Assembly (NCBI GenBank): GCA_964428655.1
Contig: CAYRYE010000002.1
Coordinates: 103,472-167,471 of the forward strand
Source: an uncultured Gammaproteobacteria bacterium
GTDB lineage: Bacteria; Patescibacteriota; Microgenomatia; UBA12405; JAHJSD01
Length of the DNA stretch: 64,000 nucleotides
Direction: 5' to 3'
Position 1 is the stretch's first letter. Every line of letters starts with the position of its first letter. Under the pieces are notes generated by a model. That model was given only the letters and a program-made list of their open reading frames with translations. It was not told where the DNA came from and ran no database searches. This document shows, one piece after another, positions 9,603 through 59,688 of the stretch. The position numbers were made by a program, and so were the translations under genes.

Positions 9603-9679
9603 GCCACCTTAGCTCAGTTGGTTAGAGCAACGGTTTTGTAAACCGTAGGTCCTCGGTTCGAATCCGAGAGGTGGCTCCA
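9603..9679 (+). tRNA. tRNA-Thr (anticodon TGT), CCA encoded
   Basis: Cloverleaf folded by hand: acceptor GCCACCT/AGGTGGC, D-arm GCTC-AGTTGGTTA-GAGC, anticodon loop TTTGTAA, T-arm CTCGG-TTCGAAT-CCGAG. Confidence 0.8.
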
Positions 9680-9751
9680 GCGCCCGTAGCTTAACGGACA
9701 GAGTGCTGGTTTGCGGAACCAGTGACGGGGGTTCGATTCCCCCCGGGCGCA
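9680..9751 (+). tRNA. tRNA-Arg (anticodon GCG as read), no CCA encoded
   Basis: Acceptor GCGCCCG/CGGGCGC, anticodon stem CTGGT/ACCAG with loop TTGCGGA, T-arm GGGGG-TTCGATT-CCCCC; GCG anticodon is uncommon, identity moderately confident. Confidence 0.6.
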
Positions 9752-9755
9752 CAAA

Positions 9756-9841
9756 GGAGGAGTCGGATAGCGGTCAATTCCACACGCTTGGAAAGCGTGA
9801 GCCTTTGGGCTACAGGGGTTCGAATCCCCTCTCCTCCGCCA
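9756..9841 (+). tRNA. tRNA-Ser (anticodon GGA), type II with long variable arm, CCA encoded
   Basis: Acceptor GGAGGAG/CTCCTCC, anticodon loop CTTGGAA, variable arm AGCC-TTTG-GGCT, T-arm AGGGG-TTCGAAT-CCCCT. Confidence 0.75.
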
Positions 9842-9842
9842 A

Positions 9843-9917
9843 GCTCCCGTAGCTCAACGGACAGAGCACTGGTCTTCGGAACCAGGGATGAGAGTTCAAT
9901 TCCCTCCGGGAGCACCA
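9843..9917 (+). tRNA. tRNA-Arg (anticodon TCG), CCA encoded
   Basis: Acceptor GCTCCCG/CGGGAGC, anticodon loop CTTCGGA, T-loop TTCAATT (one A.C mismatch in T-stem). Confidence 0.65.
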
Positions 9918-9918
9918 G

Positions 9919-9990
9919 GCCTGGATAGCTCAGAGGTGGAGCATTCCCTTGGTAAGGGAAAGGCCGTGGGTTCGAATCCCACTCCAGGCT
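9919..9990 (+). tRNA. tRNA-Thr (anticodon GGT), no CCA
   Basis: Acceptor GCCTGGA/TCCAGGC, anticodon stem TTCCC/GGGAA with loop TTGGTAA, T-arm GTGGG-TTCGAAT-CCCAC. Confidence 0.75.
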
Positions 9991-10015
9991 CAAAAATGTA
10001 GTATAATCACCCATT

Positions 10016-10192
10016 ATGGCAAAGAAAAAAGGGCCGAGAATGATTGTTGGCTTAGTTTGTTCAGAGTGTAATTCTTTTAACTACATCACTGAAAGAAACA
10101 AAGCCAACACGCCGGAAAAACTAAAATTAAAAAAATACTGCCGAAAGTGCAAAAAGCGGACTGAGCACAAAGAAACGCAAAAGCTGAAGTAA
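10016..10192 (+). CDS. rpmG: 50S ribosomal protein L33 (58 aa, below ORF-track cutoff; found by reading)
   Basis: MAKKKGPRMIVGLVCSECNSFNYITERNKANTPEKLKLKKYCRKCKKRTEHKETQKLK: CxxC...CxxC zinc ribbon and NK..P..L.LKKYC bL33 signature; classic location among tRNAs upstream of tRNA-Trp/secE/nusG; TATAAT at 10002-10007. Confidence 0.8.
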   Translation: MAKKKGPRMIVGLVCSECNSFNYITERNKANTPEKLKLKKYCRKCKKRTEHKETQKLK

Positions 10193-10195
10193 AAG

Positions 10196-10267
10196 GGGCC
10201 CGTAGTATAACGGCTAGTACATCGCCATGGCATGGCGAAAATAGGGGTTCGATTCCCCTCGGGTCCA
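10196..10267 (+). tRNA. tRNA-Ala (anticodon GGC), no CCA
   Basis: Acceptor GGGCCCG/CGGGTCC with G3:U70 identity pair, anticodon loop ATGGCAT. Confidence 0.75.
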
Positions 10268-10269
10268 CT

Positions 10270-10343
10270 AGGGGCGTCGGTTAATGGTAAACCACGGGTC
10301 TCCAAAACCCGGACTGGGGGTTCGATTCCCTCCGCCCCTGCCA
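10270..10343 (+). tRNA. tRNA-Trp (anticodon CCA), CCA encoded
   Basis: Acceptor AGGGGCG/CGCCCCT, anticodon stem CGGGT/ACCCG with loop CTCCAAA, T-arm GGGGG-TTCGATT-CCCTC. Confidence 0.8.
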
Positions 10344-16759: not shown

Positions 16760-16980
16760 TTCTGCTCCTTTGCCAATTCAAATCTATAAAAAGCTTTACC
16801 ATTGCGGGTTATTTTTTCCAAAAACATATCTTTGGGCCTAACCCAAATCCGACCATCGTCTAAATGAATATAAACCACCATATCTTCTTCTGTTTCGCTA
16901 TGCTTCGCTTCAAACAAAACTTTCATTTTATAACCTTTAAAATGATTGTAAAGACCACCAATAATTAACTTTCTTGACAT
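16756..16980 (-). CDS. DUF1653-like small protein
   Basis: 74 aa; YNHFKGYKMKV...MVVYIHLDDGRIWVRP resembles DUF1653 signature (Y.HYKGG.Y ... WVRP). Confidence 0.45.
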   Translation of the reverse strand: MSRKLIIGGLYNHFKGYKMKVLFEAKHSETEEDMVVYIHLDDGRIWVRPKDMFLEKITRNGKAFYRFELAKEQK

Positions 16981-19070
16981 TAAAACCTCCCTTCATTCTT
17001 ATAACGATCTTTTAATTCGGCGATTTTACCTTTATTCCACCGACTAGTGAGGCTGAAAAAGCCAGAAACGCGAGTAATATAGTCAACATTTTTACTCTTG
17101 CAATAGGGACATTTTTTCAATAACCCTCGAGCTGTTTTTCGGCAATCATCGCAAAGGGTAAATTCAGGAGAAAAAGCAACCAGCTGGTTTTGTGTTTGAT
17201 AAAAAGTCTTTTCAATAAAATTGGCAATTGACTGCGGCGGCGGCTTTTGCTCACCCAGCCAAATATGCGTCATAGCACCAGCATCAATCAAGGGGTGGAA
17301 TAAGCCTTCTTTAGCCACCCGCTCAATAGGATCTATATTAGCGGAAACATTCATCTGAGTTGAATTAGTATAATAGACTGCCCCTGTTTTAAGATTGCCT
17401 TTAACCACTTGCTTTGCCTGCTCCGGGAACCATTCCAAATCCAGTTTAGCCAAACGATAAGAAGTCCCTTCTGCCGGAGTCTGTTCAGTGCAAATCCGAA
17501 TTCCTAATTCCTTACTCTGCTTCTGGGTACAAAGCCTCATAAAGGAAATTACTTTTAGGCCAAATTTTATAGCCTCATCTGATTGATGAAGCTCCTGTCC
17601 CAAATGATACTGAATCATCTCGTTTAAACCATAAATAGTAGTCAGCTCAACTGAACGGTCAAAACGATAATAAGGATAAGGATCATTTTCCTGCCGTGTG
17701 CAAAGGACCGCCAAAGGCCCAGCCGCTCCCAAGTCAAGAATCCTTTTAATAAAACGCCGTTTTTGAAGATGCGCTTGGGCAATTAAATCCAGCCGCTTTT
17801 TTAACAAAGAAAAAAGTTTCTTTTCATTATGTCCTGCTTTGTAAGCGATCCGCGGCAAATTAACCGTCAGCCAGCTGGTAGAGGAATGTCTCATTAATTC
17901 CGGCTTTTTGGTTTCAAGCAGATCCTGCTTGTCCAACTTAAAGGATAAACGACAGCACTGAGAAATCCGCACACTGCTTCCCCGATCAAAAAAGAACTCG
18001 GTATTCCCCTTTTCAATAGCTACCTGGGCGGCTAATTCCAAAAATTCTTTATGCCCCGGAGTCTGCCAAAATTTTTCCGTCATATGAAAATTCGGCTTAG
18101 GCCAAAAAAAGGGTCTCCCGACTCCGTCTCCGCCAAGATAAACTTTCATCAAGGCAGTCAAAAATCGCTGAGCGTCCTTTTGATAATATTTATAAGTTTT
18201 GCCTGTATATTTACCTCCTGGGCCAATGGCCGGAGTGTTAGCATAATGATCTGGTATCTCCCAATAAAGATTAATGTCGGAAAAAACCGCCTGGCCGCCC
18301 TTGGCAACATTTTGCATATTAAATTCGTAAACCATTAATTGAGCCAAATCATAAAGTTCTTTATCAGACATCCCAGTCAAAAAGGGAGCTAGAAAGATGT
18401 TGACTGCCTCCCAACCAATTGCTCCGGAAAAATTAACCTGCAGCATACAGGAAAATTTTATCAAATGCAGAATTAAAACATGAGCGTGCTTAGCAGGCTT
18501 GGCCATTGCCAACGAAGCAGCTACATTCAAACCGTATTTTTTAACATATTCAAGATTATTACCACAGCAATAAGGCCGATCAGGAAAAGTCAACTTGTGC
18601 AAATGAATATCCCCGCGTAAATGAGCATCGGCCACTCGAGGCGAATAGATCTCAGTCAAAGCATAATCTTTTTTCATTGAACCGGCCAAAGTCATATTGG
18701 TTGTTTCCGGAGTGTGGGGATTATTAGAAGAAACCTGCTCGTTATGAGCTAAGATAACATTGCCCACATCATAAATCGGCAATCCCAAGCGCCGATATTT
18801 ACGGTATTCTCTCTGCAAGCCCCGGTTAAGCAATTCCGCTCCCACTAAAGCCCGAACCAGGGCGCCGGTAATACGCTTGATCTTTAATCGCCGAACTTTT
18901 CGTTCTACTTTTTCGGCAACTTCTTTTAATAAACCATCAGTTAAACCGGTTTCTTGCTTCAAAGATTTAATAATATAACAGTTATCCCAAGAGCCAATTT
19001 CCTCACTGGTAGTTCTCACTTGCATAGTTAAATCCCTAATCTCGTCGCGTTTTGTTGGTACCGGGCTCAT
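16980..19070 (-). CDS. nrdD: anaerobic ribonucleoside-triphosphate reductase (class III), paralog with N-terminal ATP-cone and RVSGFF glycyl-radical motif
   Basis: 696 aa; HLRGDIHLHKL...YCCGNNLEY NrdD N-terminal motif, CCRLSF, C-terminal Zn ribbon CDDC...CPYC and ITRVSGFFS glycyl-radical loop; about 100-aa ATP-cone-like N-terminus. Confidence 0.8.
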   Translation of the reverse strand: MSPVPTKRDEIRDLTMQVRTTSEEIGSWDNCYIIKSLKQETGLTDGLLKEVAEKVERKVRRLKIKRITGALVRALVGAELLNRGLQREYRKYRRLGLPIYDVGNVILAHNEQVSSNNPHTPETTNMTLAGSMKKDYALTEIYSPRVADAHLRGDIHLHKLTFPDRPYCCGNNLEYVKKYGLNVAASLAMAKPAKHAHVLILHLIKFSCMLQVNFSGAIGWEAVNIFLAPFLTGMSDKELYDLAQLMVYEFNMQNVAKGGQAVFSDINLYWEIPDHYANTPAIGPGGKYTGKTYKYYQKDAQRFLTALMKVYLGGDGVGRPFFWPKPNFHMTEKFWQTPGHKEFLELAAQVAIEKGNTEFFFDRGSSVRISQCCRLSFKLDKQDLLETKKPELMRHSSTSWLTVNLPRIAYKAGHNEKKLFSLLKKRLDLIAQAHLQKRRFIKRILDLGAAGPLAVLCTRQENDPYPYYRFDRSVELTTIYGLNEMIQYHLGQELHQSDEAIKFGLKVISFMRLCTQKQSKELGIRICTEQTPAEGTSYRLAKLDLEWFPEQAKQVVKGNLKTGAVYYTNSTQMNVSANIDPIERVAKEGLFHPLIDAGAMTHIWLGEQKPPPQSIANFIEKTFYQTQNQLVAFSPEFTLCDDCRKTARGLLKKCPYCKSKNVDYITRVSGFFSLTSRWNKGKIAELKDRYKNEGRF

Positions 19071-20956
19071 AGTTTCTTATTTCTAAATCGCTCTTTTAAC
19101 TCGTGCCTCTTCCCTTTATTCCATTGCTTAACAAAAGAATAATAACCGACTACTCTTGTTATCCAATCCACATCTTCACTACCGCAAAAACTGCATTTCT
19201 TTTTAATACCCCGCATTACCCGCCCGCAATCATCACAAATAGTGAACTCCGGACTAAAAGCTACTTGGACATTCTGCGTCTGATTAAAAATTTTCCAAAT
19301 CAACCTGGCCATCGACTGCGGCGACGGTCGAGACTCCCCTAGCCAAATATGACTCAAAGCGCCACCCTGCATCATTGGGTGAAACTTTCCTTCAACCTCA
19401 ATTCTTTCCAAAACATCTATTTCGGCGTCAACATCTAATTGGGAAGAATTTGTGTAGTAAACTTCATCTGTTTTTGGATTGCCGTGAACAATTTTTTTAC
19501 TCTCTTCCGGATAGCAAATCAAGTCTAGCTTGGCAAAACGATAGTTAGTTGATTCCGCCGGGTCTTGGTCTAAAAGTATTTTTAACCCCGACTTCTTACT
19601 TTCCTCCTCACACTTTTTTTTCATAAAAGCGGTTATCCGCAAGCCAAATTTAAGCGCTTCATCAGACTGGTGCAGAGCCCTACCCAAATGGAATCTGACC
19701 GCATCAGAAAGACCGCCAACTGCATTCATGAAAGTCATTTTATCAATTCGTAAATAAGGTTCTTTGTCACTTTTGGCAGTTATGGTCAACATACCCAAAG
19801 GCCCGGCAAGCCCCATTGCTAACAACTTTTTCAAAAATTTATACTTCTGCAGGTGAGCTTTAGTCAACAGTTGCAATTTCTCCTCTAAAATCTTGAAAAA
19901 ATTCTCATCATTATGTTTCGCTTGATAAGCTATCCGAGGTAGATTGATGGTCAAATAAGGACAGGCGGCATAACGCATCCGCCATGGCTTTTTGGCATCT
20001 TTTAAATCTTCTTTGGATAACTCGAACTGAACCCGACAGCACTCAGAAATTTTAGCAGTTGCTCCCCGGTCAAAAATAAAATAAGGATTGCCCATTTTCG
20101 AAGCAACATCACAGACATGTTCCAAAAACTCTTTATGACCCGGTGTCTTCCAAAATTTAGTAGTAATATGCACATTTGGTTTTGGCCAGAAAAAGGGCCT
20201 GCCCTTAGCATCGCCCCTTTTATAAATATTCAGTATTTGCCAAACCAAAGCCTGCGATTCTTTAACATAGTCTTTATAAAGCTTGCCCGTATATTCACCT
20301 CGGGGGCCAATGGCCGGCACATTGGCAAAATGATCAGGAATTTCCCAATAAAGATTAATGTCGGAAAAAACCGGCTGGGCCCCATGGGGACCAACTGTTT
20401 GATTAAATTGATAAATTATCCTCTGGGCTACCTGTCTTATTTCCCTATCCCCCATCCCTCCTAAATACGGGGCCATATACATATTTAGGGCATCCCAGCC
20501 AATGGCGCCGCCGAAATGGGCCCGCAGAGCCATGGTCATTCTCATCATATGATCAACCAGAGCATCAATGTGGCCGGCTGGTTTAACAGCGGCAAAAGAA
20601 GCATATTTAGTTAAGCCAAATTTTTTGACATATTCCAAGCTCTGGCCAGAACAATAGGGTCTGTCAATAAAGCCCAGCTTGTGAAGCTTTATATCTCCTT
20701 TTCTATGAGCTTCAGCAACATCTTTGGAAAAAACGTTCCGCAAAGCATATTCTTTTTTTAAAAACTCGGAAAGAGTAAAAGAGGTGCCTTCCGGACTATT
20801 TATTTTGTTGGCATCATCTTTGCTGCCTTCCGAGGCAATAACACCGCCTATTTCACCCAAAGTGATAATAATTTTTTTTCCCAGGCCATTGACTCTCCCT
20901 ATTTCGGTGAAATCAGTGGGGTCAAAACTATCGGTTTCTTTTTTTCTAATTGGCAT
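19067..20956 (-). CDS. nrdD: anaerobic ribonucleoside-triphosphate reductase (class III), paralog lacking ATP-cone, RVVGYY glycyl-radical motif
   Basis: 629 aa; HRKGDIKLHKL...YCSGQSLEY, ECCRVQF, Zn ribbon CDDC...CSFC, ITRVVGYYS; paralogous to downstream copy (shared FSDINLYWEIPDH, GRPFFWPKPN). Confidence 0.8.
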   Translation of the reverse strand: MPIRKKETDSFDPTDFTEIGRVNGLGKKIIITLGEIGGVIASEGSKDDANKINSPEGTSFTLSEFLKKEYALRNVFSKDVAEAHRKGDIKLHKLGFIDRPYCSGQSLEYVKKFGLTKYASFAAVKPAGHIDALVDHMMRMTMALRAHFGGAIGWDALNMYMAPYLGGMGDREIRQVAQRIIYQFNQTVGPHGAQPVFSDINLYWEIPDHFANVPAIGPRGEYTGKLYKDYVKESQALVWQILNIYKRGDAKGRPFFWPKPNVHITTKFWKTPGHKEFLEHVCDVASKMGNPYFIFDRGATAKISECCRVQFELSKEDLKDAKKPWRMRYAACPYLTINLPRIAYQAKHNDENFFKILEEKLQLLTKAHLQKYKFLKKLLAMGLAGPLGMLTITAKSDKEPYLRIDKMTFMNAVGGLSDAVRFHLGRALHQSDEALKFGLRITAFMKKKCEEESKKSGLKILLDQDPAESTNYRFAKLDLICYPEESKKIVHGNPKTDEVYYTNSSQLDVDAEIDVLERIEVEGKFHPMMQGGALSHIWLGESRPSPQSMARLIWKIFNQTQNVQVAFSPEFTICDDCGRVMRGIKKKCSFCGSEDVDWITRVVGYYSFVKQWNKGKRHELKERFRNKKL

Positions 20957-48612: not shown

Positions 48613-49734
48613 CTATTTGTGAGCCCAGTGTGAGATATCAATCAAAACTACGTGCTTGTCGTCATAATCACCGGAGTTGGAAACAATTTTCACAGCCCCA
48701 TCCTTTTTAAGCACTGCTTCATCTTCAATCTCGGGAGAGCAGTAATCTGTGCCATCTGAACCAACCAAAAGAACAACTTGACGCCCAGCCCCATACACCT
48801 CGCTAGACGCAAATTCTGCCTTTTTCATTACTCCTATTCTCAGGTTTTTCTCAAATGCGCGGCGCGGCTGACCAAATGCAGTATCGATTGCTCCTTCTAA
48901 GTTGTCAACAGTTTCCGCTGCCCCTTGCGGCGTATTCTCTGCTTCTATAAATCTTCCAAGCAATTCCTGCCTTGCTTCACTAACTGCCTGGCTGATTTCT
49001 GATGGCGTCATTTCTTCAGTAGAACCAATATATCTCCTCAGTATATTTTGAGGCACTTCTAAAATTCTTTTTTCTTCAGGCTGAGCGCTGGAAATTAATT
49101 CAAGTCTTTCATCTCCCGCATAAGCCCAGGCAATATGATCTTCGGTAATCAAAACAACTGCGCCGGCAGTAGAATAATCAAATTTATCTTTTCTTCTCGC
49201 TCCTTTATAAGCCTGGTGAATCCGTCCATTCATATAAAGTGCCAATCGGCCGCAAAATTCCTGAGGAGAATCACTGAGACTATTTTCAAAGGCTTCTTCT
49301 CCACGAGCCACAGCGCTTACAGCACTCTGCGCGGCTTCTATGCCTTGAGTGGCTGCCATATGCCCATTTCCGCCCTCACTAACACCGTCAAGAGAAACAA
49401 TTAAAAGAGACTCACCAAACTTTGGGTGTTTAAAAACAGCCGCCAACATTCTGTCGTCACCGCCAACACCTTTTGCCTCCTTATCACTTCTAGCTTGAAT
49501 AGCGGCGCTGACAAACAATCTGGATTCTGCCAAAGAAACATTTCTTTGCATTTGGTGCATCGGCGGCTTTGCGCCCTCCACCACTTCCCTGCCCAAAGCC
49601 AAATAATTATTTCCAAGATGATCTTTTTCTTTTTTTTGAACTGAAATAATATCTTCTCCCATATTTTGCAATCTTTTCCGTAATCTGTTATACACTACAT
49701 ATAACATAAATGAGTCCTGAACATCAAAAAGCAA
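48613..49734 (-). CDS. PP2C-like (SpoIIE/PPM family) phosphatase-like protein, degenerate
   Basis: VSLDGVSEGGNGHMAATQG resembles VADGMGGH..G PPM motif; AYAGDERL resembles GDSR motif. Confidence 0.4.
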   Translation of the reverse strand: MLFDVQDSFMLYVVYNRLRKRLQNMGEDIISVQKKEKDHLGNNYLALGREVVEGAKPPMHQMQRNVSLAESRLFVSAAIQARSDKEAKGVGGDDRMLAAVFKHPKFGESLLIVSLDGVSEGGNGHMAATQGIEAAQSAVSAVARGEEAFENSLSDSPQEFCGRLALYMNGRIHQAYKGARRKDKFDYSTAGAVVLITEDHIAWAYAGDERLELISSAQPEEKRILEVPQNILRRYIGSTEEMTPSEISQAVSEARQELLGRFIEAENTPQGAAETVDNLEGAIDTAFGQPRRAFEKNLRIGVMKKAEFASSEVYGAGRQVVLLVGSDGTDYCSPEIEDEAVLKKDGAVKIVSNSGDYDDKHVVLIDISHWAHK

Positions 49735-49756
49735 AAAACATAATTATTATTACTTA

Positions 49757-49825
49757 GTCGCTTTAAACCCGAAACTTCGGGGTAAAAAGCGGCATGACCA
49801 AAATCCTTCGCGAGAAGGGTTTTTT
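49757..49825 (+). promoter_or_regulatory. ileS 5' leader: long hairpin (49757-49793) and intrinsic-terminator-like hairpin ccttcgcgagaagg + T-run (49805-49825) ending about 19 nt before the ATG
   Basis: Stems and T-run read directly; TACAAT at 49832-49837 only 6 nt before ATG. Confidence 0.45.
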
Positions 49826-49843
49826 GTTTGTTACAATAGAAAT

Positions 49844-52792
49844 ATGGTTAGGAAAAATAAGCCACCAAAAAAATATTTCAAAGAAGTGCCGGCTAAGTTT
49901 GATTTTATTGGCAATGAGAAAACGCTTTTGGATTGGTGGTATAAAAGCGGCGTGGTTAAAAAGTATCTAGATAAAAACAAGGACTCTAAAAAGAGATTCT
50001 CTTTTATAGATGGGCCTATCACCGCCAACAACCCCATGGGGGTTCATCACGCCTGGGGCCGAACCTTGAAAGATTTATATCAGCGCTACAAAAATATGCA
50101 AGGCTTCAAACAGCGCTTCCAAAATGGCTTTGACTGCCAGGGATTATGGATCGAAGTTGAAGTAGAAAAGGAAAGAAAATTTAAAACTAAAAAAGATATT
50201 GAAAAATACGGTATTGCTGAATTCGTTGAAGACTGCAAAAACAGGGTTCGAAAATATTCGAAAGTGCAAATTGAACAATCCAAAAAGCTAGGCTACTTTA
50301 TGGATTGGGGCAACGATTACTACACAATGAGCGATGAAAATAACTACGGCATTTGGAGTTTTCTGAAAAAAGTCTGGCAAGACGACAACCTTTATAAGGG
50401 CCGCGACAGCGTGCCCTGGTGCCCCCGCTGCGGCACAGCTATTTCCCAACACGAAATTTTAACTGAAGAATATAAAAAAATAACACACGATTCAATTTAT
50501 TTTGAACTCCCCATTGTTAGTCGTGACAACGAACGCTTTCTTGTCTGGACAACAACACCATGGACTTTGCCAGGAAACGTTGCTTTAGCTGTTCATCCAG
50601 AACTGGAATATTGGCTAATTAAAGGTTTTACTGGTATAAATTTTTGGATAGCCGGCCCACTAGCTAAAACGGTTTTTAATACTGATGTTAAGGCCATAAA
50701 AAAAATCAAGGGTAATAAATTGGTAGGGCTTAAATACACTGCGCCCTTTGATGAATGGCCTGCTGTTCAGGCCGCCAAAAAAGAAAATCCCAAAACTTTC
50801 CATACCGTAGTCGCCTCTAAAGAAATGGTGGCAGAAGATGAAGGAACCGGAATCGTTCATATTGCCACCGGCTGCGGCACTGAAGATTTCCGCCTTGGAC
50901 AAGAGAAAAAGCTGCCGGTTTTACCAACGATTGATGAAGCGGCTTGCTACCTAAATGGTTTTGGAGACTTAAGTCATAAGAATGCAAAAAACAATCCTCG
51001 ACTGGCTTTAGACCATCCATTATTAAAAGTTAAAGTCGGCAATCCTGCTGAAGACTATATTTTTGAAATTAAACCTTACACCCATCGCTATCCTGTCTGC
51101 TGGCGTTGCCAAACTGAACTCGTCTGGCGGGTAGTTGATGAGTGGTATATTGCTATGGACAATCAGCATCAACCCAAGGCGAAAAACTATCGTCAACGAC
51201 TAATGCAGATTATTAAAAAAGTTCATTGGATCCCCTCTTTTGGCTATGCCCGCGAATTAGACTGGCTTCGCAATATGGAAGATTGGCTCATTTCTAAAAA
51301 ACGCTATTGGGGCTTAGCTTTACCCATTTGGGAATGCTCGTGCGGTCATTTTGAAGTGATTGGCTCAAAAGAAGAATTAGAAAAAAAGGCAGTTGAAGGC
51401 TGGAAAGAATTCATTGGCCACACTCCACACCGACCCTGGATAGACAAAGTAAAAATCAAATGCCCCCAATGCGGTCAATTGATTAGCCGAATTTTAGATG
51501 TGGGCAATCCTTGGCTAGATGCAGGCATTGTTTCTTTTTCTACCCTGAAATATTTTAAAAAGCGTCAATACTGGCAGAAGTGGTTCCCTGCTGACTTAGT
51601 GCTTGAGTGTTTTCCGGGCCAGTTTAAAAACTGGTTCTATTCTCTTTTGGCCATGAGTGCTGTTTTGGAAAAGACAGCCCCTTTTAAAACTCTTTTAGGC
51701 CACGCTCTGGTCCGTGACGAAAAGGGCGAGGAAATGCACAAAAGCAAAGGTAATGCTATTTGGTTTGACGAGGCGGCAGAGAAAATGGGGGTTGACGCCA
51801 TGCGGTGGCTGTATGCGCGGCAGGAACCGAAATTTAATCTCAATTTCGGCTACGGCATTGCTGATGAAGTCAGAAGGCAATATATTTTCCTGCTTTGGAA
51901 CACTTATCGGTTCTTTGTTACCTATGCCAATTTAAATGGTTGGAAACCAAAGAAAAAATGGCCAAATGGTCAAATGGCCAAATGGTCGAAATTGGATAAA
52001 TGGATCTTGTCTCGTCTAGAATCAACTAAAAAAGTCGCTAAAGAAAAACTTGACGACTACCACCATCACGAAGCAATTAAAGCTATTGAAAAATTTCTGA
52101 ATGATCTTTCTTTATGGTACGTTAGAAGATCCAGAGAAAGAGTTAATCCTAACAACAGAGATAAAAAAGACAGAAGCGCTTGCCTCCCCACCTTATATTA
52201 TGTTCTGAAGAACCTCTCTCTAATTCTGGCTCCATTTGTTCCCTATTTAACAGAGACTATTTGGCAGGGATTAACTAATTCTGACAACTCTGTCCACCTT
52301 CAAAATTGGCCAGAAACAAAAAAAGAATTAATTAACAAAAAATTAGAAAAGCAAATGGCATTGGTGCGGGAAATTGTCACTCTCGGTCATAGTCAAAGAA
52401 AGGCAAAGCAAATTAAGGTTAGACAACCATTAAAAAAGTTCAAAGTTCAAAGTTCAAAGTTCAAAGTTAGTGAAGTCTTAATTCAACTAATTAAAGACGA
52501 ATTAAACGCAAAAGAAGTAGAAATTAAAACCGGAAAGGGCGAATTAAAAGTTGAGTTTGATACAAAAATCACCCTGGAACTAAAAGCAGAGGGTGAGGTA
52601 CGAGAATTGATCCGCCAAGTTCAAATCCTGCGCCGCGAAGCGGGATTATCTTTAGACGACAAAATCACTATCCACGCCCCCTCCTGGCCAAAAAAATGGG
52701 AAAAGGAAATACTAACACGAACTGGAGCTAAAGAAATTAAAAAAGGAAAAAAGCTCAAAATTATCACTAATTCTGACTTTAAGAACACCTAA
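49844..52792 (+). CDS. ileS: isoleucyl-tRNA synthetase (type 2-like), with atypical HIGH/KMSKS regions and two internal tandem repeats
   Basis: 982 aa; GPITANNPMGVHHAW aligns to GPPYANGSIHIGH; editing CP1 TTTPWTLPGNVALAV; EMHKSKGN at KMSKS position; WCPRCGT zinc motif. Confidence 0.85.
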   Translation: MVRKNKPPKKYFKEVPAKFDFIGNEKTLLDWWYKSGVVKKYLDKNKDSKKRFSFIDGPITANNPMGVHHAWGRTLKDLYQRYKNMQGFKQRFQNGFDCQGLWIEVEVEKERKFKTKKDIEKYGIAEFVEDCKNRVRKYSKVQIEQSKKLGYFMDWGNDYYTMSDENNYGIWSFLKKVWQDDNLYKGRDSVPWCPRCGTAISQHEILTEEYKKITHDSIYFELPIVSRDNERFLVWTTTPWTLPGNVALAVHPELEYWLIKGFTGINFWIAGPLAKTVFNTDVKAIKKIKGNKLVGLKYTAPFDEWPAVQAAKKENPKTFHTVVASKEMVAEDEGTGIVHIATGCGTEDFRLGQEKKLPVLPTIDEAACYLNGFGDLSHKNAKNNPRLALDHPLLKVKVGNPAEDYIFEIKPYTHRYPVCWRCQTELVWRVVDEWYIAMDNQHQPKAKNYRQRLMQIIKKVHWIPSFGYARELDWLRNMEDWLISKKRYWGLALPIWECSCGHFEVIGSKEELEKKAVEGWKEFIGHTPHRPWIDKVKIKCPQCGQLISRILDVGNPWLDAGIVSFSTLKYFKKRQYWQKWFPADLVLECFPGQFKNWFYSLLAMSAVLEKTAPFKTLLGHALVRDEKGEEMHKSKGNAIWFDEAAEKMGVDAMRWLYARQEPKFNLNFGYGIADEVRRQYIFLLWNTYRFFVTYANLNGWKPKKKWPNGQMAKWSKLDKWILSRLESTKKVAKEKLDDYHHHEAIKAIEKFLNDLSLWYVRRSRERVNPNNRDKKDRSACLPTLYYVLKNLSLILAPFVPYLTETIWQGLTNSDNSVHLQNWPETKKELINKKLEKQMALVREIVTLGHSQRKAKQIKVRQPLKKFKVQSSKFKVSEVLIQLIKDELNAKEVEIKTGKGELKVEFDTKITLELKAEGEVRELIRQVQILRREAGLSLDDKITIHAPSWPKKWEKEILTRTGAKEIKKGKKLKIITNSDFKNT
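51956..51993. repeat. tandem repeat (ccaaatggt/caaatggc 8-nt units) inside ileS
   Basis: aaatggccaaatggtcaaatggccaaatggtcgaaatt read directly. Confidence 0.8.
52438..52468. repeat. tandem repeat gttcaaa x4 inside ileS
   Basis: gttcaaagttcaaagttcaaagttcaaagtt read directly. Confidence 0.85.
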
Positions 52793-57109: not shown

Positions 57110-58891
57110 TTAAACATTTAGAGATCGCTTATCAATATTATTTTTTATTAATCCCAAAAACTCAGCTAATTTCTGTTCTTTCTGTTTTTTCTGGCCCCTT
57201 TTACGAACATTGACTGATTTGTTTTTTTCCTCTTTATCGCCAAGGACTAAAATATAGGGAACTTTTTGAAGTTCTGCTTGACGAATACGGTAAGAAAGGG
57301 TCTGGCTGGAATCGTCAAGCTCAACACGAATATCTTCTTTTTTAAGAGTTTCGGCCACTTTTTGACCATAATCAACATGTTTTTCAGTAATGGGCAAAAC
57401 TACCACTTGCACTGGTACCAACCAAACCGGAAAAGCGCCAGCAAAATGTTCAGTTAAAAAGGAAATAAATCTGATGTGAGATCCCAATGGAGCCCGGTGA
57501 ATACAAACTGGTATTTTCTTTTTGCCATCTTCGCCAACATATTCTAAACCAAGGGCTTTGGGAATAAAAAAATCAAGTTGGTTAGTTGAGGCAGAGAAAA
57601 CTTTTCCAGTCACCGTCCTGATATTAAAGTCTATTTTAGGTCCATAGAAAGCGGCTCCGCCTTCCTCAATTTCATAAGCAATTCCTGATTTTTTAATATA
57701 TTCCAGAGTGATTTTTTCGGCTTTATCCCACATTTTGTCGTCGCCAAGATACTTGTCTTTATTTTCCTTGTCTCTAATGGCAAAAGAAAGAAAATAATCT
57801 TTTTCGATTAAACCCAAAACATCGTAATAATACTTATGCAGTTCCATCACTTTTTGGAATTCTTCCTCAGCCTGTTCTTCAGTGCAAAAAATATGGGCGT
57901 CATTTTGATGAATTGGCCCTCGGGCCCGCATTATGCCATGAAGTTCACCAGCCTTTTCATAACGATAAACTGCCCCATATTCAGCAATCCTCAAGGGTAA
58001 ATCGCGATAACTTCTTGGCTGACTTTTAAAAACTAAATGATGAGCAGCACAATTCATTGGTTTTAAGTAGTAGTTTCCTTTTTCTTTATCTCTCAAGGCT
58101 GGATACATTGACTCCAAATAATGGGGAACATGACCAGTTTTCTTAAATAACTCCTCGGTGGCAATATGGGGAGTAAAAACTCGAACATAACCCCACTTCC
58201 TCTCAGTTTTTTTGGCCCACTTTTCCAGTTCTTCAGCAATAATCGCCCCGTTGGGTAAAAGAGTCACCAAACCTTGACCAAGTTCATCAGATAGCTGATA
58301 AAGTTTAAGACTTTTGTTTAGCTCGCGATGGTCACGTTTTTTGGCTTCTTCAATTTGTTTTAAATAATCATCTAGCTCTTTTTGGGTTGGAAAGGCAGTA
58401 CCGTAAATGCGGGTGAGCATTTTGTTTTTTTCATCGCCTCGCCAATAAGCGCCGGCAACAGATAAGAGTTTGAAAGCGCCAATTTTACCTGTACTCTTTA
58501 TATGAGGACCAGCACAGAGATCAACAAATCCTTCGCCTGTGTAATAAAGCATTGCCTTTTCGCCTTTTTCCTCAATTTCATCCAACCATTCCTGCTTGTA
58601 AGGATTGCCTTTAAAAAGTTTTTTTGCCTCTTTAACGGCAATTTCTTTCTTAACTAAGGAAAGATTTTTCTTAATAATCTTTCTCATCTCTTTTTCAATC
58701 TTGGAAAAGTCACTCTCTGAAATTTTCAAACCACCCCTAATATTAAAGTCAAAATAAAAACCTTCATCTATTGCCGGCCCCATAGCTTTAATTATTTTGC
58801 CCGGCCAAAGATTGTCCATTGCCTGCATCAACACATGCTCGGCTGTATGCCTCATTACTTTCAGGGTGTTATTCGGATTTTGTTTCTTCAT
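57110..58891 (-). CDS. thrS: threonyl-tRNA synthetase lacking N-terminal TGS domain
   Basis: 593 aa; MRHTAEHVLMQAM (HxxxH of second additional domain), class II core motifs, C-terminal anticodon-binding domain. Confidence 0.9.
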   Translation of the reverse strand: MKKQNPNNTLKVMRHTAEHVLMQAMDNLWPGKIIKAMGPAIDEGFYFDFNIRGGLKISESDFSKIEKEMRKIIKKNLSLVKKEIAVKEAKKLFKGNPYKQEWLDEIEEKGEKAMLYYTGEGFVDLCAGPHIKSTGKIGAFKLLSVAGAYWRGDEKNKMLTRIYGTAFPTQKELDDYLKQIEEAKKRDHRELNKSLKLYQLSDELGQGLVTLLPNGAIIAEELEKWAKKTERKWGYVRVFTPHIATEELFKKTGHVPHYLESMYPALRDKEKGNYYLKPMNCAAHHLVFKSQPRSYRDLPLRIAEYGAVYRYEKAGELHGIMRARGPIHQNDAHIFCTEEQAEEEFQKVMELHKYYYDVLGLIEKDYFLSFAIRDKENKDKYLGDDKMWDKAEKITLEYIKKSGIAYEIEEGGAAFYGPKIDFNIRTVTGKVFSASTNQLDFFIPKALGLEYVGEDGKKKIPVCIHRAPLGSHIRFISFLTEHFAGAFPVWLVPVQVVVLPITEKHVDYGQKVAETLKKEDIRVELDDSSQTLSYRIRQAELQKVPYILVLGDKEEKNKSVNVRKRGQKKQKEQKLAEFLGLIKNNIDKRSLNV

Positions 58892-59310
58892 TTTCTGCTA
58901 TTAATATACAATTTAAGCAAATAAAAAACCAGCCTTCGCGGCTGGTTTGGTTCTTTTCCAAATTACTCCGCTACAAACCAGCCTCTTATAAGGCAGTAGC
59001 TGTAGTGGTAGCAATCAAAGAAATTTTCATTTTATTAGAGATAGTATATCACAACTTATCTTTTCCGAAATCAGCGGCTCCCCACTGCCTCTCTTACCAA
59101 TCCTGGCCGACAACCATGCGGACAATCTCCACTATGAACACAACAAAGAGCAGGTCTTTCTGTTCTTCCCCATTTTCCTCGACAGCCAACCCGAGTGCCT
59201 CCCCCGGTAGTTGTTGGAATAGCCCGACCACAACGAGTAACTTGTTTTACTCGTTCTGTTGTAACTTGCGACATATTTTCACTTATAACAAATTTATAAA
59301 AAATCGTCAA
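58892..59310 (-). promoter_or_regulatory. putative about 380-nt GC-rich structured 5' leader of thrS with its own promoter (TTGACG-17-TATAAG at 59282-59310); overlaps ORF 59071-59310
   Basis: Promoter hexamers and spacing read on minus strand; leader ends in terminator/antiterminator; the 67-79 aa Cys-rich ORF inside may be spurious or a leader peptide. Confidence 0.4.
58921..58984 (-). terminator. intrinsic terminator hairpin (ccagcc-gcgaa-ggctgg + U6) with mutually exclusive upstream pairing (ggctggtttg / caaaccagcc), 30 nt upstream of thrS ATG
   Basis: Minus-strand sequence ggctggtttgtagcggagtaatttggaaaagaaccaaaccagccgcgaaggctggtttttt read directly; segment caaaccagcc can pair with either neighbour. 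Confidence 0.55.
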
Positions 59311-59379
59311 TTAATAAAAAATGTTTTCTAAATCAAGAACAAGTTTGATTTTGTTAATCGCGGCGTCAACGCAAAAAAA

Positions 59380-59688
59380 TCTATAGTGTATAATATGTAC
59401 ATATATTGAAAATGTCAAAAAAACCTATTGCTCTAATTGCTCCTACGGGTAGACACTGTGAGGGATGTCGAACTCCAGCTGGAAGCATTTGCCCTGTAAA
59501 CCCCAGAACATCTTTAAAACCCACAAAAGAACAGCCTCGCGGAGAGGCATTATCTCCAAACTTATGTGTGAACACTAGTAGAGGTCTCTCTAAAAAGCAA
59601 CTCCGTGTAACTAGACGTTGGATAGGTCGAACAGCAAGGACTTGTTAGATACCGGGCTAGGTGTTAAAATCAAATCAAATATAATTAA
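59380..59688 (+). ncRNA. candidate GC-rich structured RNA (or 80-aa Cys-rich ORF 59406-59648) downstream of a TATAAT promoter and co-oriented with tRNA-Cys/tRNA-Lys
   Basis: TATAAT at 59388-59393; GC-rich in an AT-rich genome; several local hairpins (ggagaggcattatctcc, ccagctgg); no match to RNase P, tmRNA or SRP consensus that I could confirm by eye. Confidence 0.25.

Follow-up and report, generated by a model that had tools for sequence, protein, structure and literature searches.

A probable isoleucine leader-peptide attenuator, lacking an antiterminator, upstream of ileS in a bacterium of the candidate phyla radiation

Leader-peptide attenuators have been described on several aminoacyl-tRNA synthetase genes, namely pheST, the trpS and leuS genes of Streptomyces and the hisS paralogues of Bacillus (PMC1262725, PMC2965389). 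The swapping of T-box and leader-peptide control at a single gene is a documented evolutionary pattern (PMC2965389). For ileS, which encodes isoleucyl-tRNA synthetase (IleRS), only T-boxes were found in an incomplete search of the literature, and the same incomplete search returned no report of an isoleucine (Ile) leader peptide on ileS, of a threonine (Thr) leader on thrS or of any leader-peptide attenuator in the Patescibacteria, or candidate phyla radiation (CPR). To our knowledge, gene regulation has hardly been explored in these bacteria, which cannot be grown alone. In the present study, a 64,000-nucleotide (nt) stretch of a Patescibacteria contig (CAYRYE010000002.1, assembly GCA_964428655.1; the whole stretch is referred to as the window) was analyzed. 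Its ileS gene is preceded by a short open reading frame (ORF) with a run of Ile codons, a hairpin and an intrinsic terminator. We propose, with a probability of roughly 0.6, that these form a ribosome-mediated leader-peptide transcription attenuator that senses charged tRNA-Ile and stands upstream of a basal leaderless promoter.

Such an element would act on the same gene as the ileS T-box of Firmicutes, which has a translational form in Actinobacteria, and would respond to the same signal, the charging of tRNA-Ile. With the transcriptional T-box it would also share the output, an intrinsic terminator, whereas the sensor of the T-box is a tRNA-binding RNA and the sensor proposed here is a translating ribosome. 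The leader element is about 120 nt long and lies in a 197-nt intergenic region whose fold has a z-score of -3.25 on the plus strand and -1.46 on the minus strand. The region and its flanking genes are laid out as follows.

48613-~49663, minus strand: neighbouring gene upstream of ileS
49666..49694, plus strand: candidate promoter P1, TTGCAA, 17 nt, (TGt)TATACA (sequence reading)
49710..49757, plus strand: leader ORF of 15 codons, MSPEHQKAKNIIIIT, stop TAG (sequence)
49740..49751, plus strand: putative regulatory Ile codons ATA ATT ATT ATT, consecutive (sequence)
49757..49793, plus strand: hairpin hp1 (sequence, folding)
49800..49825, plus strand: intrinsic terminator, AAAATCCTTC-GCGA-GAAGGGTTTT plus TT (consensus terminator scan and an independent scan)
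49829..49837, plus strand: candidate promoter P2, extended -10 TGT-TACAAT (TACAAT at 49832-49837; spacer of 6 nt to the ileS ATG)
49844..52792, plus strand: ileS, isoleucyl-tRNA synthetase, 982 amino acids (Pfam tRNA-synt_1, Anticodon_1, DUF5915)

The codons of the leader ORF are ATG AGT CCT GAA CAT CAA AAA GCA AAA AAC ATA ATT ATT ATT ACT TAG, and transcription from P1 would start near 49701, about 9 nt ahead of the leader ATG. Among the 430 six-frame ATG ORFs of 8 to 30 amino acids in the window, this is the only one with at least four Ile in five residues near the C terminus; the ORF that leads thrS, the threonyl-tRNA synthetase gene on the minus strand, is the only one with at least four Thr in five. 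Each of the two sits directly upstream of its cognate synthetase gene on the same strand. As in classical attenuators, each is a short ORF, predicted to be translated, with a cluster of cognate codons, and a terminator stands between it and the gene (49800-49825 for ileS; 58948-58923, minus strand, for thrS).

Hairpin hp1 has an outer stem (CGCTTT/AAAGCG) with two further pairs that include the last base of the leader stop codon, the G of TAG, which is the first paired base of the hairpin; the inner stem is CCCGA/TCGGG and the loop AACT. Alone it folds with -19.1 kcal/mol (z = -4.3), and one of 200 dinucleotide shuffles folds equally well. The terminator has a GC core, CCTTC-GCGA-GAAGG (49805-49818), of -5.4 kcal/mol; A:U pairs extend its stem to 49800-49823 and its energy to between -9.6 and -10.8 kcal/mol, and the T6 run occupies 49820-49825. 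On both strands of the 64 kb, clean intergenic terminators with a GC stem, a short loop and a T run, at about -9.6 kcal/mol or better, were found only in the ileS and thrS leaders. This rarity, with the z-score of hp1, argues that the hairpin and terminator before ileS are not there by chance. Canonical intrinsic terminators are very rare throughout the window (1-64000), where hardly any gene end has a GC hairpin and a T run.

A first-pass annotation had already pointed to the hairpin, to the terminator shape with its T6 run and to the TACAAT before ileS, and all three are present at the positions it gave, the terminator scan reporting the same site. It had noted that no plus-strand gene lies upstream for the terminator to serve, which the minus-strand neighbour bears out, and had preferred a regulatory attenuator to a terminator of an upstream gene; our analysis supports that reading as a cis-regulatory attenuator.

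By its IleRS homologues, the organism falls in the Patescibacteria (CPR), in the Microgenomates/Shapirobacteria neighbourhood. Comparison of ileS upstream regions, which the first-pass annotation had suggested as a check, found the same layout in eight relatives whose IleRS is 55-69% identical. Five come from genomes (L001, L004, L006, L012 and L037) and three from contigs encoding close homologues (L161, L162 and L166). The shared layout begins with a -10-like box and an ORF of 9-15 codons that has 2-4 Ile codons near its end; next comes a stable hairpin, separated by a short spacer from a terminator, which is found in all eight, and finally ileS. The relatives' leader peptides are MKSQREKTSQIIIDF, MAETGNYKKIIIIT, MMLIRKETSIIIK, MTNSQVVKNMIIN, (L)SVINKKSIIIIR, MKVWQNIIIA, MQGLQAKEIIINLRS and MFFSLSIIG. 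Only the Ile run is common to the leader peptides, in contexts such as IIIIT, SIIIK, MIIN, IIIIR, NIIIA, IIIDF, IIINLRS and SIIG, with synonymous variation among ATT, ATC and ATA. Since the run alone is conserved while its codons vary synonymously, the peptides carry the signature of regulatory leader peptides.

The promoters of the relatives' leaders, strong -10 boxes or full promoters, are separated from the start codon of the leader by 3-11 nt (mostly 6-7); examples are TTGACG-17-TAAAAT in L012, TGGTATAAAT in L162, L004 and L006, and TGCTATATT in L037. The layout is kept whether the upstream gene is divergent or co-directional. Because it is kept beside co-directional genes, the AT-rich run that encodes Ile is not simply part of a divergent promoter. 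In about 66 more distant ileS loci, no ORF containing two consecutive Ile and followed by a terminator was found.

A hairpin of the hp1 type stands at the equivalent place in all nine leaders (the window and the eight relatives), with energies of -14 to -20 kcal/mol and z-scores of -2.3 to -5.7, and the sequences are unrelated. The MAFFT/RNAalifold alignment was poor at the outer stem of hp1 and recovered no more than its inner stem and the terminator; per-sequence folds were therefore used for hp1. By these predicted folds, hp1 is a conserved structure and not a conserved sequence. This bears on the idea of a function in trans for the terminated leader RNA or the Ile-rich peptide, such as is described for the RNA and the peptide of the trp attenuator in rhizobia, with hp1 conserved for that purpose. 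A 5' hairpin followed by a single-stranded spacer and a terminator does resemble a small RNA, and trans functions of attenuator-derived small RNAs and leader peptides are documented (PMC7298713, PMC7968998). Against it, no conserved seed or protein site was found in the hp1 loop or the spacer among the nine leaders, and the peptide outside the Ile run is not conserved either, which means that no seed or peptide motif has been kept; moreover, the element always stands directly before ileS. A trans-acting role is accordingly very improbable.

What is kept in hp1, in addition to its stability, is its position relative to the Ile codons. Counted from the first base of the last Ile codon, the distance to the base of hp1 is 8 nt in the window; in full-length folds it is 7-8 nt in six of the nine leaders and shorter in three, where extra outer pairs are counted. 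With the last Ile codon in the A site, the base of hp1 is at about +11 from the P site, the position at which unwinding of mRNA by the ribosome sets in. Since reaching the stop codon requires hp1 to be unwound, hp1 can be intact only until the ribosome passes the Ile run. The stop itself is UAG in seven of the nine leaders, compared with 8 of 48 genes in the window; the preference is probably due to the pairing of its G in hp1. The gap between hp1 and the terminator stem is 0-6 nt across the leaders (6 nt in the window).

In the proposed mechanism, hp1 would be the element whose folded or unfolded state signals where the ribosome is. When Ile-tRNA is plentiful, the ribosome would cross the Ile codons, unwind hp1, reach the UAG and depart, polymerases from P1 would halt at the T run, and ileS would be transcribed from P2 alone. 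When Ile-tRNA is scarce, the ribosome would be held on the Ile run with hp1 still folded, and more of the P1 polymerases would pass the terminator, adding ileS transcripts to the output of P2. The hairpin would probably serve as a polymerase pause hairpin that gives the ribosome time to catch up. It might also serve as a collapsible spacer, which when folded would hold the stalled ribosome near enough to the terminator to hinder its hairpin. From the A site of a stalled ribosome to the terminator core there are 2-19 unpaired nt with hp1 folded, and 32-50 once the ribosome has unwound hp1 and reached the stop. In E. coli in vivo, full folding of a terminator needs 10-15 nt or more of free mRNA between the A site and the hairpin (PMC4824070).

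The first-pass annotation had seen a parallel device before thrS, and a Thr-rich leader ORF and a terminator were indeed found there. The features of this locus are given below.

59043..59048, minus strand: -10 box for transcription of the thrS leader, TATACT (TGa-TATACT), with 12 nt between it and the leader ATG
58986..59030, minus strand: thrS leader ORF, MKISLIATTTATAL, stop TAA (sequence)
59009-58995, minus strand: Thr codons of the leader, ACC ACT ACA GCT ACT (4 Thr in 5 codons; sequence)
58923..58983, minus strand: attenuator, segments 2-4 (sequence, ribosome-mask folds)
58983-58974, minus strand: segment 2, GGCTGGTTTG, 2 nt after the leader stop
58949-58940, minus strand: segment 3, CAAACCAGCC, 24 bases beyond segment 2
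58934-58923, minus strand: segment 4, GGCTGG plus T6, with GCGAA intervening after segment 3
57110..58891, minus strand: thrS, threonyl-tRNA synthetase (ThrRS), 593 amino acids (Pfam tRNA-synt_2b, HGTP_anticodon, tRNA_SAD)

Segment 2 of the thrS leader copies segment 4, so that segment 3 can pair with either; the 2:3 pairing is the antiterminator (10 base pairs) and the 3:4 pairing the terminator (-14.3 kcal/mol). In folds of the free leader RNA, the Thr-codon region was paired with segment 2. With a ribosome mask on the Thr codons, the 2:3 antiterminator became competitive, and with the mask at the stop, segment 2 was covered and the terminator formed. The thrS leader is thus predicted to follow the textbook four-segment scheme of the trp type.

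A blind scan of the compared CPR loci for a small ORF with a run of one residue followed by a strong terminator gave 10 matches. Five were Ile runs before ileS (in the window, L012, L037, L161 and L031), one was the Thr run before the thrS of the window, one was a phenylalanine (Phe) run before pheS in L081, and the remaining three had no open downstream gene. In L081 (12940-13165), a pheS-like gene with the product MDIVRLQNLKNQ...EYLGRNGEI is preceded by a leaderless ORF, MQVPTITRAAIEVSFFFT*, and a perfect TTGACA-17-TATAAT promoter stands 7 nt ahead of that ORF. The ORF is followed by hairpins, a terminator (GGACTCCCCAAAGGGGAG plus T8) and then TGTTATAAT. This element is a predicted Phe leader-peptide attenuator in a related CPR genome. 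It lends substance to the family of cis-regulators that had been suggested from the ileS and thrS leaders. No single conserved element unites them, however; because the Thr leader is absent from five relatives of thrS, as described below, the family is a recurring design and not one conserved RNA.

The Ile run of L031, whose IleRS is 54% identical, belongs to an unrelated and fully classical Ile attenuator with the leader MNTQRLATITAIIITSPAGGS*. Its segments are CCUCUCC (segment 1, right after the Ile codons), GGGAGGG (segment 2), GCCUCCC (segment 3) and GGGAGG (segment 4), and the predicted probability of the terminator is 0.01 with the ribosome on the Ile codons and 0.93 with it at the stop. 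In this locus (L031:140-700) the attenuator precedes a Cys-containing ORF of about 100 amino acids and then ileS; as the small ORF stands between the two, the attenuator would control a two-gene unit.

A third type of leader was seen at ileS in L019, L042, L052 and L069 (Collierbacteria-like CPR). It is conserved, about 150 nt long and T-box-like, with AGATGGTACC, at the following positions.

L019:2770-2975, T-box-like ileS leader
L042:2785-3010, T-box-like ileS leader
L052:2770-2985, T-box-like ileS leader
L069:2790-2995, T-box-like ileS leader

These leaders have a triplet (ATA, ATC, ATC and ATT, respectively) followed by AAGTAAA, resembling a specifier and a conserved purine, and a terminator. 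The leaders of L019, L052 and L069 gave no Rfam match even at E<=1 and are T-box-like by eye alone; the four-locus leader may be a divergent T-box that is missing from current models. The sensor at ileS thus appears to be swapped among neighbouring CPR lineages, between a leader peptide, of the hp1 type or of the classical one, and a T-box-like RNA.

ileS is a classic T-box gene, and with these four loci among the related CPR, a T-box, another riboswitch or a protein-binding leader through which IleRS regulates its own gene might be supposed in the window as well. The first-pass annotation had likewise proposed a T-box scan and a search for an Ile specifier (AUC) loop. Neither lead held. Rfam found no T-box or riboswitch in the whole window at the gathering threshold or in 49550-49950 at E<=10, and no specifier loop, T-box sequence or UGGN bulge is visible; the proposed sensor, which the earlier reading overlooked, is the codon run of the leader peptide. 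The roughly 35 nt of free RNA are too short for a Stem I and an antiterminator, and the hp1 loop differs in every relative, contrary to a specific contact with protein or tRNA. The only weak match was to a Phe leader-peptide model (Phe_leader, RF01859), with 21.2 bits on the ileS leader; on the thrS leader it scored 26.0 bits over the full length (E = 0.019), against a threshold of 55, and Thr_leader (RF00506) scored 14.5 bits there, also against a threshold of 55. The resemblance of both leaders to Phe_leader is read as one of layout alone, not of family membership. A T-box or a related sensor before the ileS of the window is hardly to be expected.

Several results weigh against a leader-peptide attenuator before ileS. 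A classical attenuator has an antiterminator that shares a strand with the terminator, and the ileS leader and its eight relatives have none. No strand is common to hp1 and the terminator in any of the nine leaders, and three tests found no mutually exclusive antiterminator in any of them. When a ribosome mask was placed on each Ile codon in turn or on the stop codon, every minimum free energy fold kept the terminator, and losing it would cost 6.7-14.4 kcal/mol at every ribosome position. The partition function, run on RNA truncated to the portion outside the polymerase at the decision point, gave the same probability of the terminator core at all ribosome positions. RNAduplex pairing of the upstream RNA with each terminator arm was no better than in 300 shuffles. 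A long-range pairing of an A-tract with the U-tract, seen in the 197-nt fold, was rejected as a candidate, since it would lengthen the terminator instead of opposing it. As controls in the same tests, L031 gave a clear switch and thrS a partial one. Furthermore, P1 is weak by consensus and absent from the consensus promoter scan, ileS has no Shine-Dalgarno sequence, and translation of the leader and of read-through transcripts is assumed. At thrS, the Thr leader was not found in five close relatives (65-72% identity), which have a tRNA gene or an operon partner upstream instead; in L081, L168 and L169, a tRNA gene directly precedes thrS. Most of the proteins found by a ThrRS scan of metagenomes were 45% identical and came from unrelated bacteria.

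Because the classical antiterminator was tested and is absent, we infer the coupling between the state of hp1 and the terminator. Coupling through a collapsible spacer is our best guess, taken from geometry alone, which also counts against the proposal. A steric attenuator that works with no antiterminator, in which hp1, whatever its sequence, sits at the mRNA entry point, ribosome and polymerase crowd each other and a weak terminator fails, is in itself unlikely.

The same folds are what would be expected if the terminator were constitutive. P1 would then drive a short RNA of its own, about 115-125 nt long and ended at the T run in every case; the terminator would be an insulator that shields P2 from transcription coming from upstream or from the divergent promoter, and the Ile run would have no regulatory role. 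Indeed, hp1 and the terminator fold independently under all masks, thermodynamics predicts termination in every state, and with a well-supported leaderless P2 the ileS of the window need not rely on read-through. This explanation leaves several observations unaccounted for, namely the runs of Ile, Thr and Phe before ileS, thrS and pheS as the only conserved peptide feature, the fixed distance, 7-8 nt, at which hp1 follows the last Ile codon, and the expression of an essential ileS in the relatives that have no P2. The terminator core is also weak (-5.4 kcal/mol). A constitutive terminator is therefore judged unlikely.

The evidence on P2 comes from the orthologous loci. In 39 of 65 loci a TAnnnT box is found at a spacer of 6-8 nt from the ileS ATG, compared with about 2 per other position, and TAWAAT occurs at these spacers in 22 of 65. 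From this positional enrichment, the ileS mRNA is probably leaderless as a rule in this clade, and the TACAAT of the window is probably a real leaderless promoter of ileS. The T run of the terminator abuts the -10 box in the window, L161 and L162, and likewise after the attenuators of thrS and of pheS in L081. No promoter was recognisable between the terminator and ileS in L037, L166 and L012, the gap being only 8 nt in L037. Without P2, substantial read-through would be needed in these three, contrary to a purely constitutive terminator. The first-pass annotation had offered a choice between a nearly leaderless mRNA and read-through of the terminator; each is probable, and the choice is not an exclusive one, as P2 and the upstream unit coexist. 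It had also held that a transcription start downstream of the hairpin would reduce the element to a mere terminator. Since P2 stands beside an upstream unit of promoter, leader and terminator, such a start is compatible with attenuation. Many first genes of operons in the window lack a Shine-Dalgarno sequence and carry TAnnnT at 6-12 nt from the ATG, which suggests that leaderless or near-leaderless mRNAs are widespread there.

The folding results also raise the question of direction. The ribosome at the stop is the sole state that frees any strand of hp1, which at face value would give the opposite logic and is a further point against our proposal. A ribosome at the UAG would hold the 5' arm of hp1, and the freed purine-rich 3' arm would disturb the pyrimidine-rich arm of the terminator; a stall on the Ile codons would keep hp1 closed and termination efficient, and read-through would signal proficient translation. 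The excess of UAG over the genes of the window could then indicate a functional dwell at the stop, and weak pairings of the GGGGU:AUCCU type occur in some leaders. Such pairings are not above shuffle expectation, however, and the predicted probability of the terminator is not lowered; the UAG preference may merely reflect the pairing of the G in hp1. IleRS would moreover fall as the charging of tRNA-Ile falls, a destabilising positive feedback, and the ileS leader of L031 and the thrS leader of the window clearly use the normal logic. We regard the inverted logic as decidedly unlikely.

Read-through by frameshifting was considered as well. In two leaders, those of the window and of L162, ileS lies in the -1 frame relative to the leader ORF, and no stop interrupts this frame between the Ile codons and the ATG of ileS; hp1 is moreover placed at the distance of a frameshift stimulator. 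The -1 frame has an immediate stop in L004 and L006, and both alternative frames are closed before the terminator in L161, L166 and L012. With the frame closed in several relatives, frameshift read-through into ileS was treated as a coincidence.

The loci also have consequences for annotation. The ATG at 49844 is the sole in-frame start of ileS upstream of the N-terminal motif YFKEVPAKFDF, which is conserved in relatives. The public gene call of IleRS (P0001, 968 amino acids, 100% identical) begins at 49886, 14 codons past this ATG, and the motif falls upstream of the called start; the database probably has the start wrong, and the lack of a ribosome-binding site is the most likely cause. Gene callers overlook leader ORFs as small as these and miss or mis-set the start of a leaderless ileS.

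A small Cys-rich ORF (MSQVTTERVKQVTRCGRAIPTTTGGGTRVGCRGKWGRTERPALCCVHSGDCPHGCRPG...) precedes the thrS leader at 59073-59273 on the minus strand, with a promoter-like site (TTGACG...TATAAG) 7 nt before its ATG. Between this ORF and a tRNA-Cys gene (59330-59688) there are about 360 nt with a higher GC content than the flanking sequence and without a convincing ORF. No structured RNA was found in 59330-59688 by Rfam (E<=1) or ARAGORN; the segment may be a structured RNA not yet recognised or a degraded gene. Elsewhere in the window, nine tRNA genes form a cluster at 9603-10340 on the plus strand (Rfam), and two adjacent, overlapping genes of the anaerobic ribonucleotide reductase family NRDD (696 and 629 amino acids, full-length family matches) occupy 16980-20956 on the minus strand; from the family matches, the pair is read as a tandem duplication or as two paralogues.

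Taken together, CPR bacteria probably use ribosome-mediated attenuation on synthetase genes, namely ileS and thrS in the window and pheS in a relative. At ileS, an antiterminator is absent, although the distance between the regulatory codons and a structurally conserved hairpin is fixed. Either a known mechanism is hidden in the ileS leader, or translation and termination are coupled in a way that has not been described. The steric attenuator described above, if true, would be a new and purely steric coupling of translation to intrinsic termination, in CPR bacteria with apparently leaderless leader peptides.

Among the known systems, the attenuators of pheM-pheST in E. coli and of leuS and trpS in Streptomyces come close to both leaders of the window, whose best sub-threshold match in Rfam is Phe_leader. 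These attenuators have an overlapping antiterminator and terminator, whereas the ileS leader of the window does not; furthermore, the leader ORFs of the window seem to have little or no untranslated leader, and downstream of the terminator there is a second promoter. With the classical attenuators of the trp, thr, his and leu operons (Rfam Trp_leader, Thr_leader, His_leader and Leu_leader), the thrS leader shares the four segments, their order, the regulatory codons in segment 1 and the stop before segment 2, and the ileS leader of L031 does likewise for Ile. The classical attenuators govern biosynthetic operons, whereas here the gene is that of a synthetase, and the Rfam scores are far below the thresholds.

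Control of the pyrBI type, by the proximity of the ribosome, works with no antiterminator, and the closeness of the ribosome decides the outcome (PMC4824070), as proposed for the ileS leader. In the pyrBI type, the leader ORF runs up to or through the terminator, whereas the stop of the ileS leader (49755-49757) lies 42 nt before the terminator stem, and the ribosome could be brought near only by the folding of hp1. The leader ORF does not extend into the terminator, and in L161, L166 and L012 the alternative frames are closed through it. In mycobacteria, leaderless upstream ORFs rich in one amino acid (poly-Cys attenuators) are starvation sensors that act mainly through translation of the downstream gene. 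Those short, leaderless ORFs rich in a single residue resemble the leader ORFs described here, and to this arrangement the ileS leader adds a clear intrinsic terminator.

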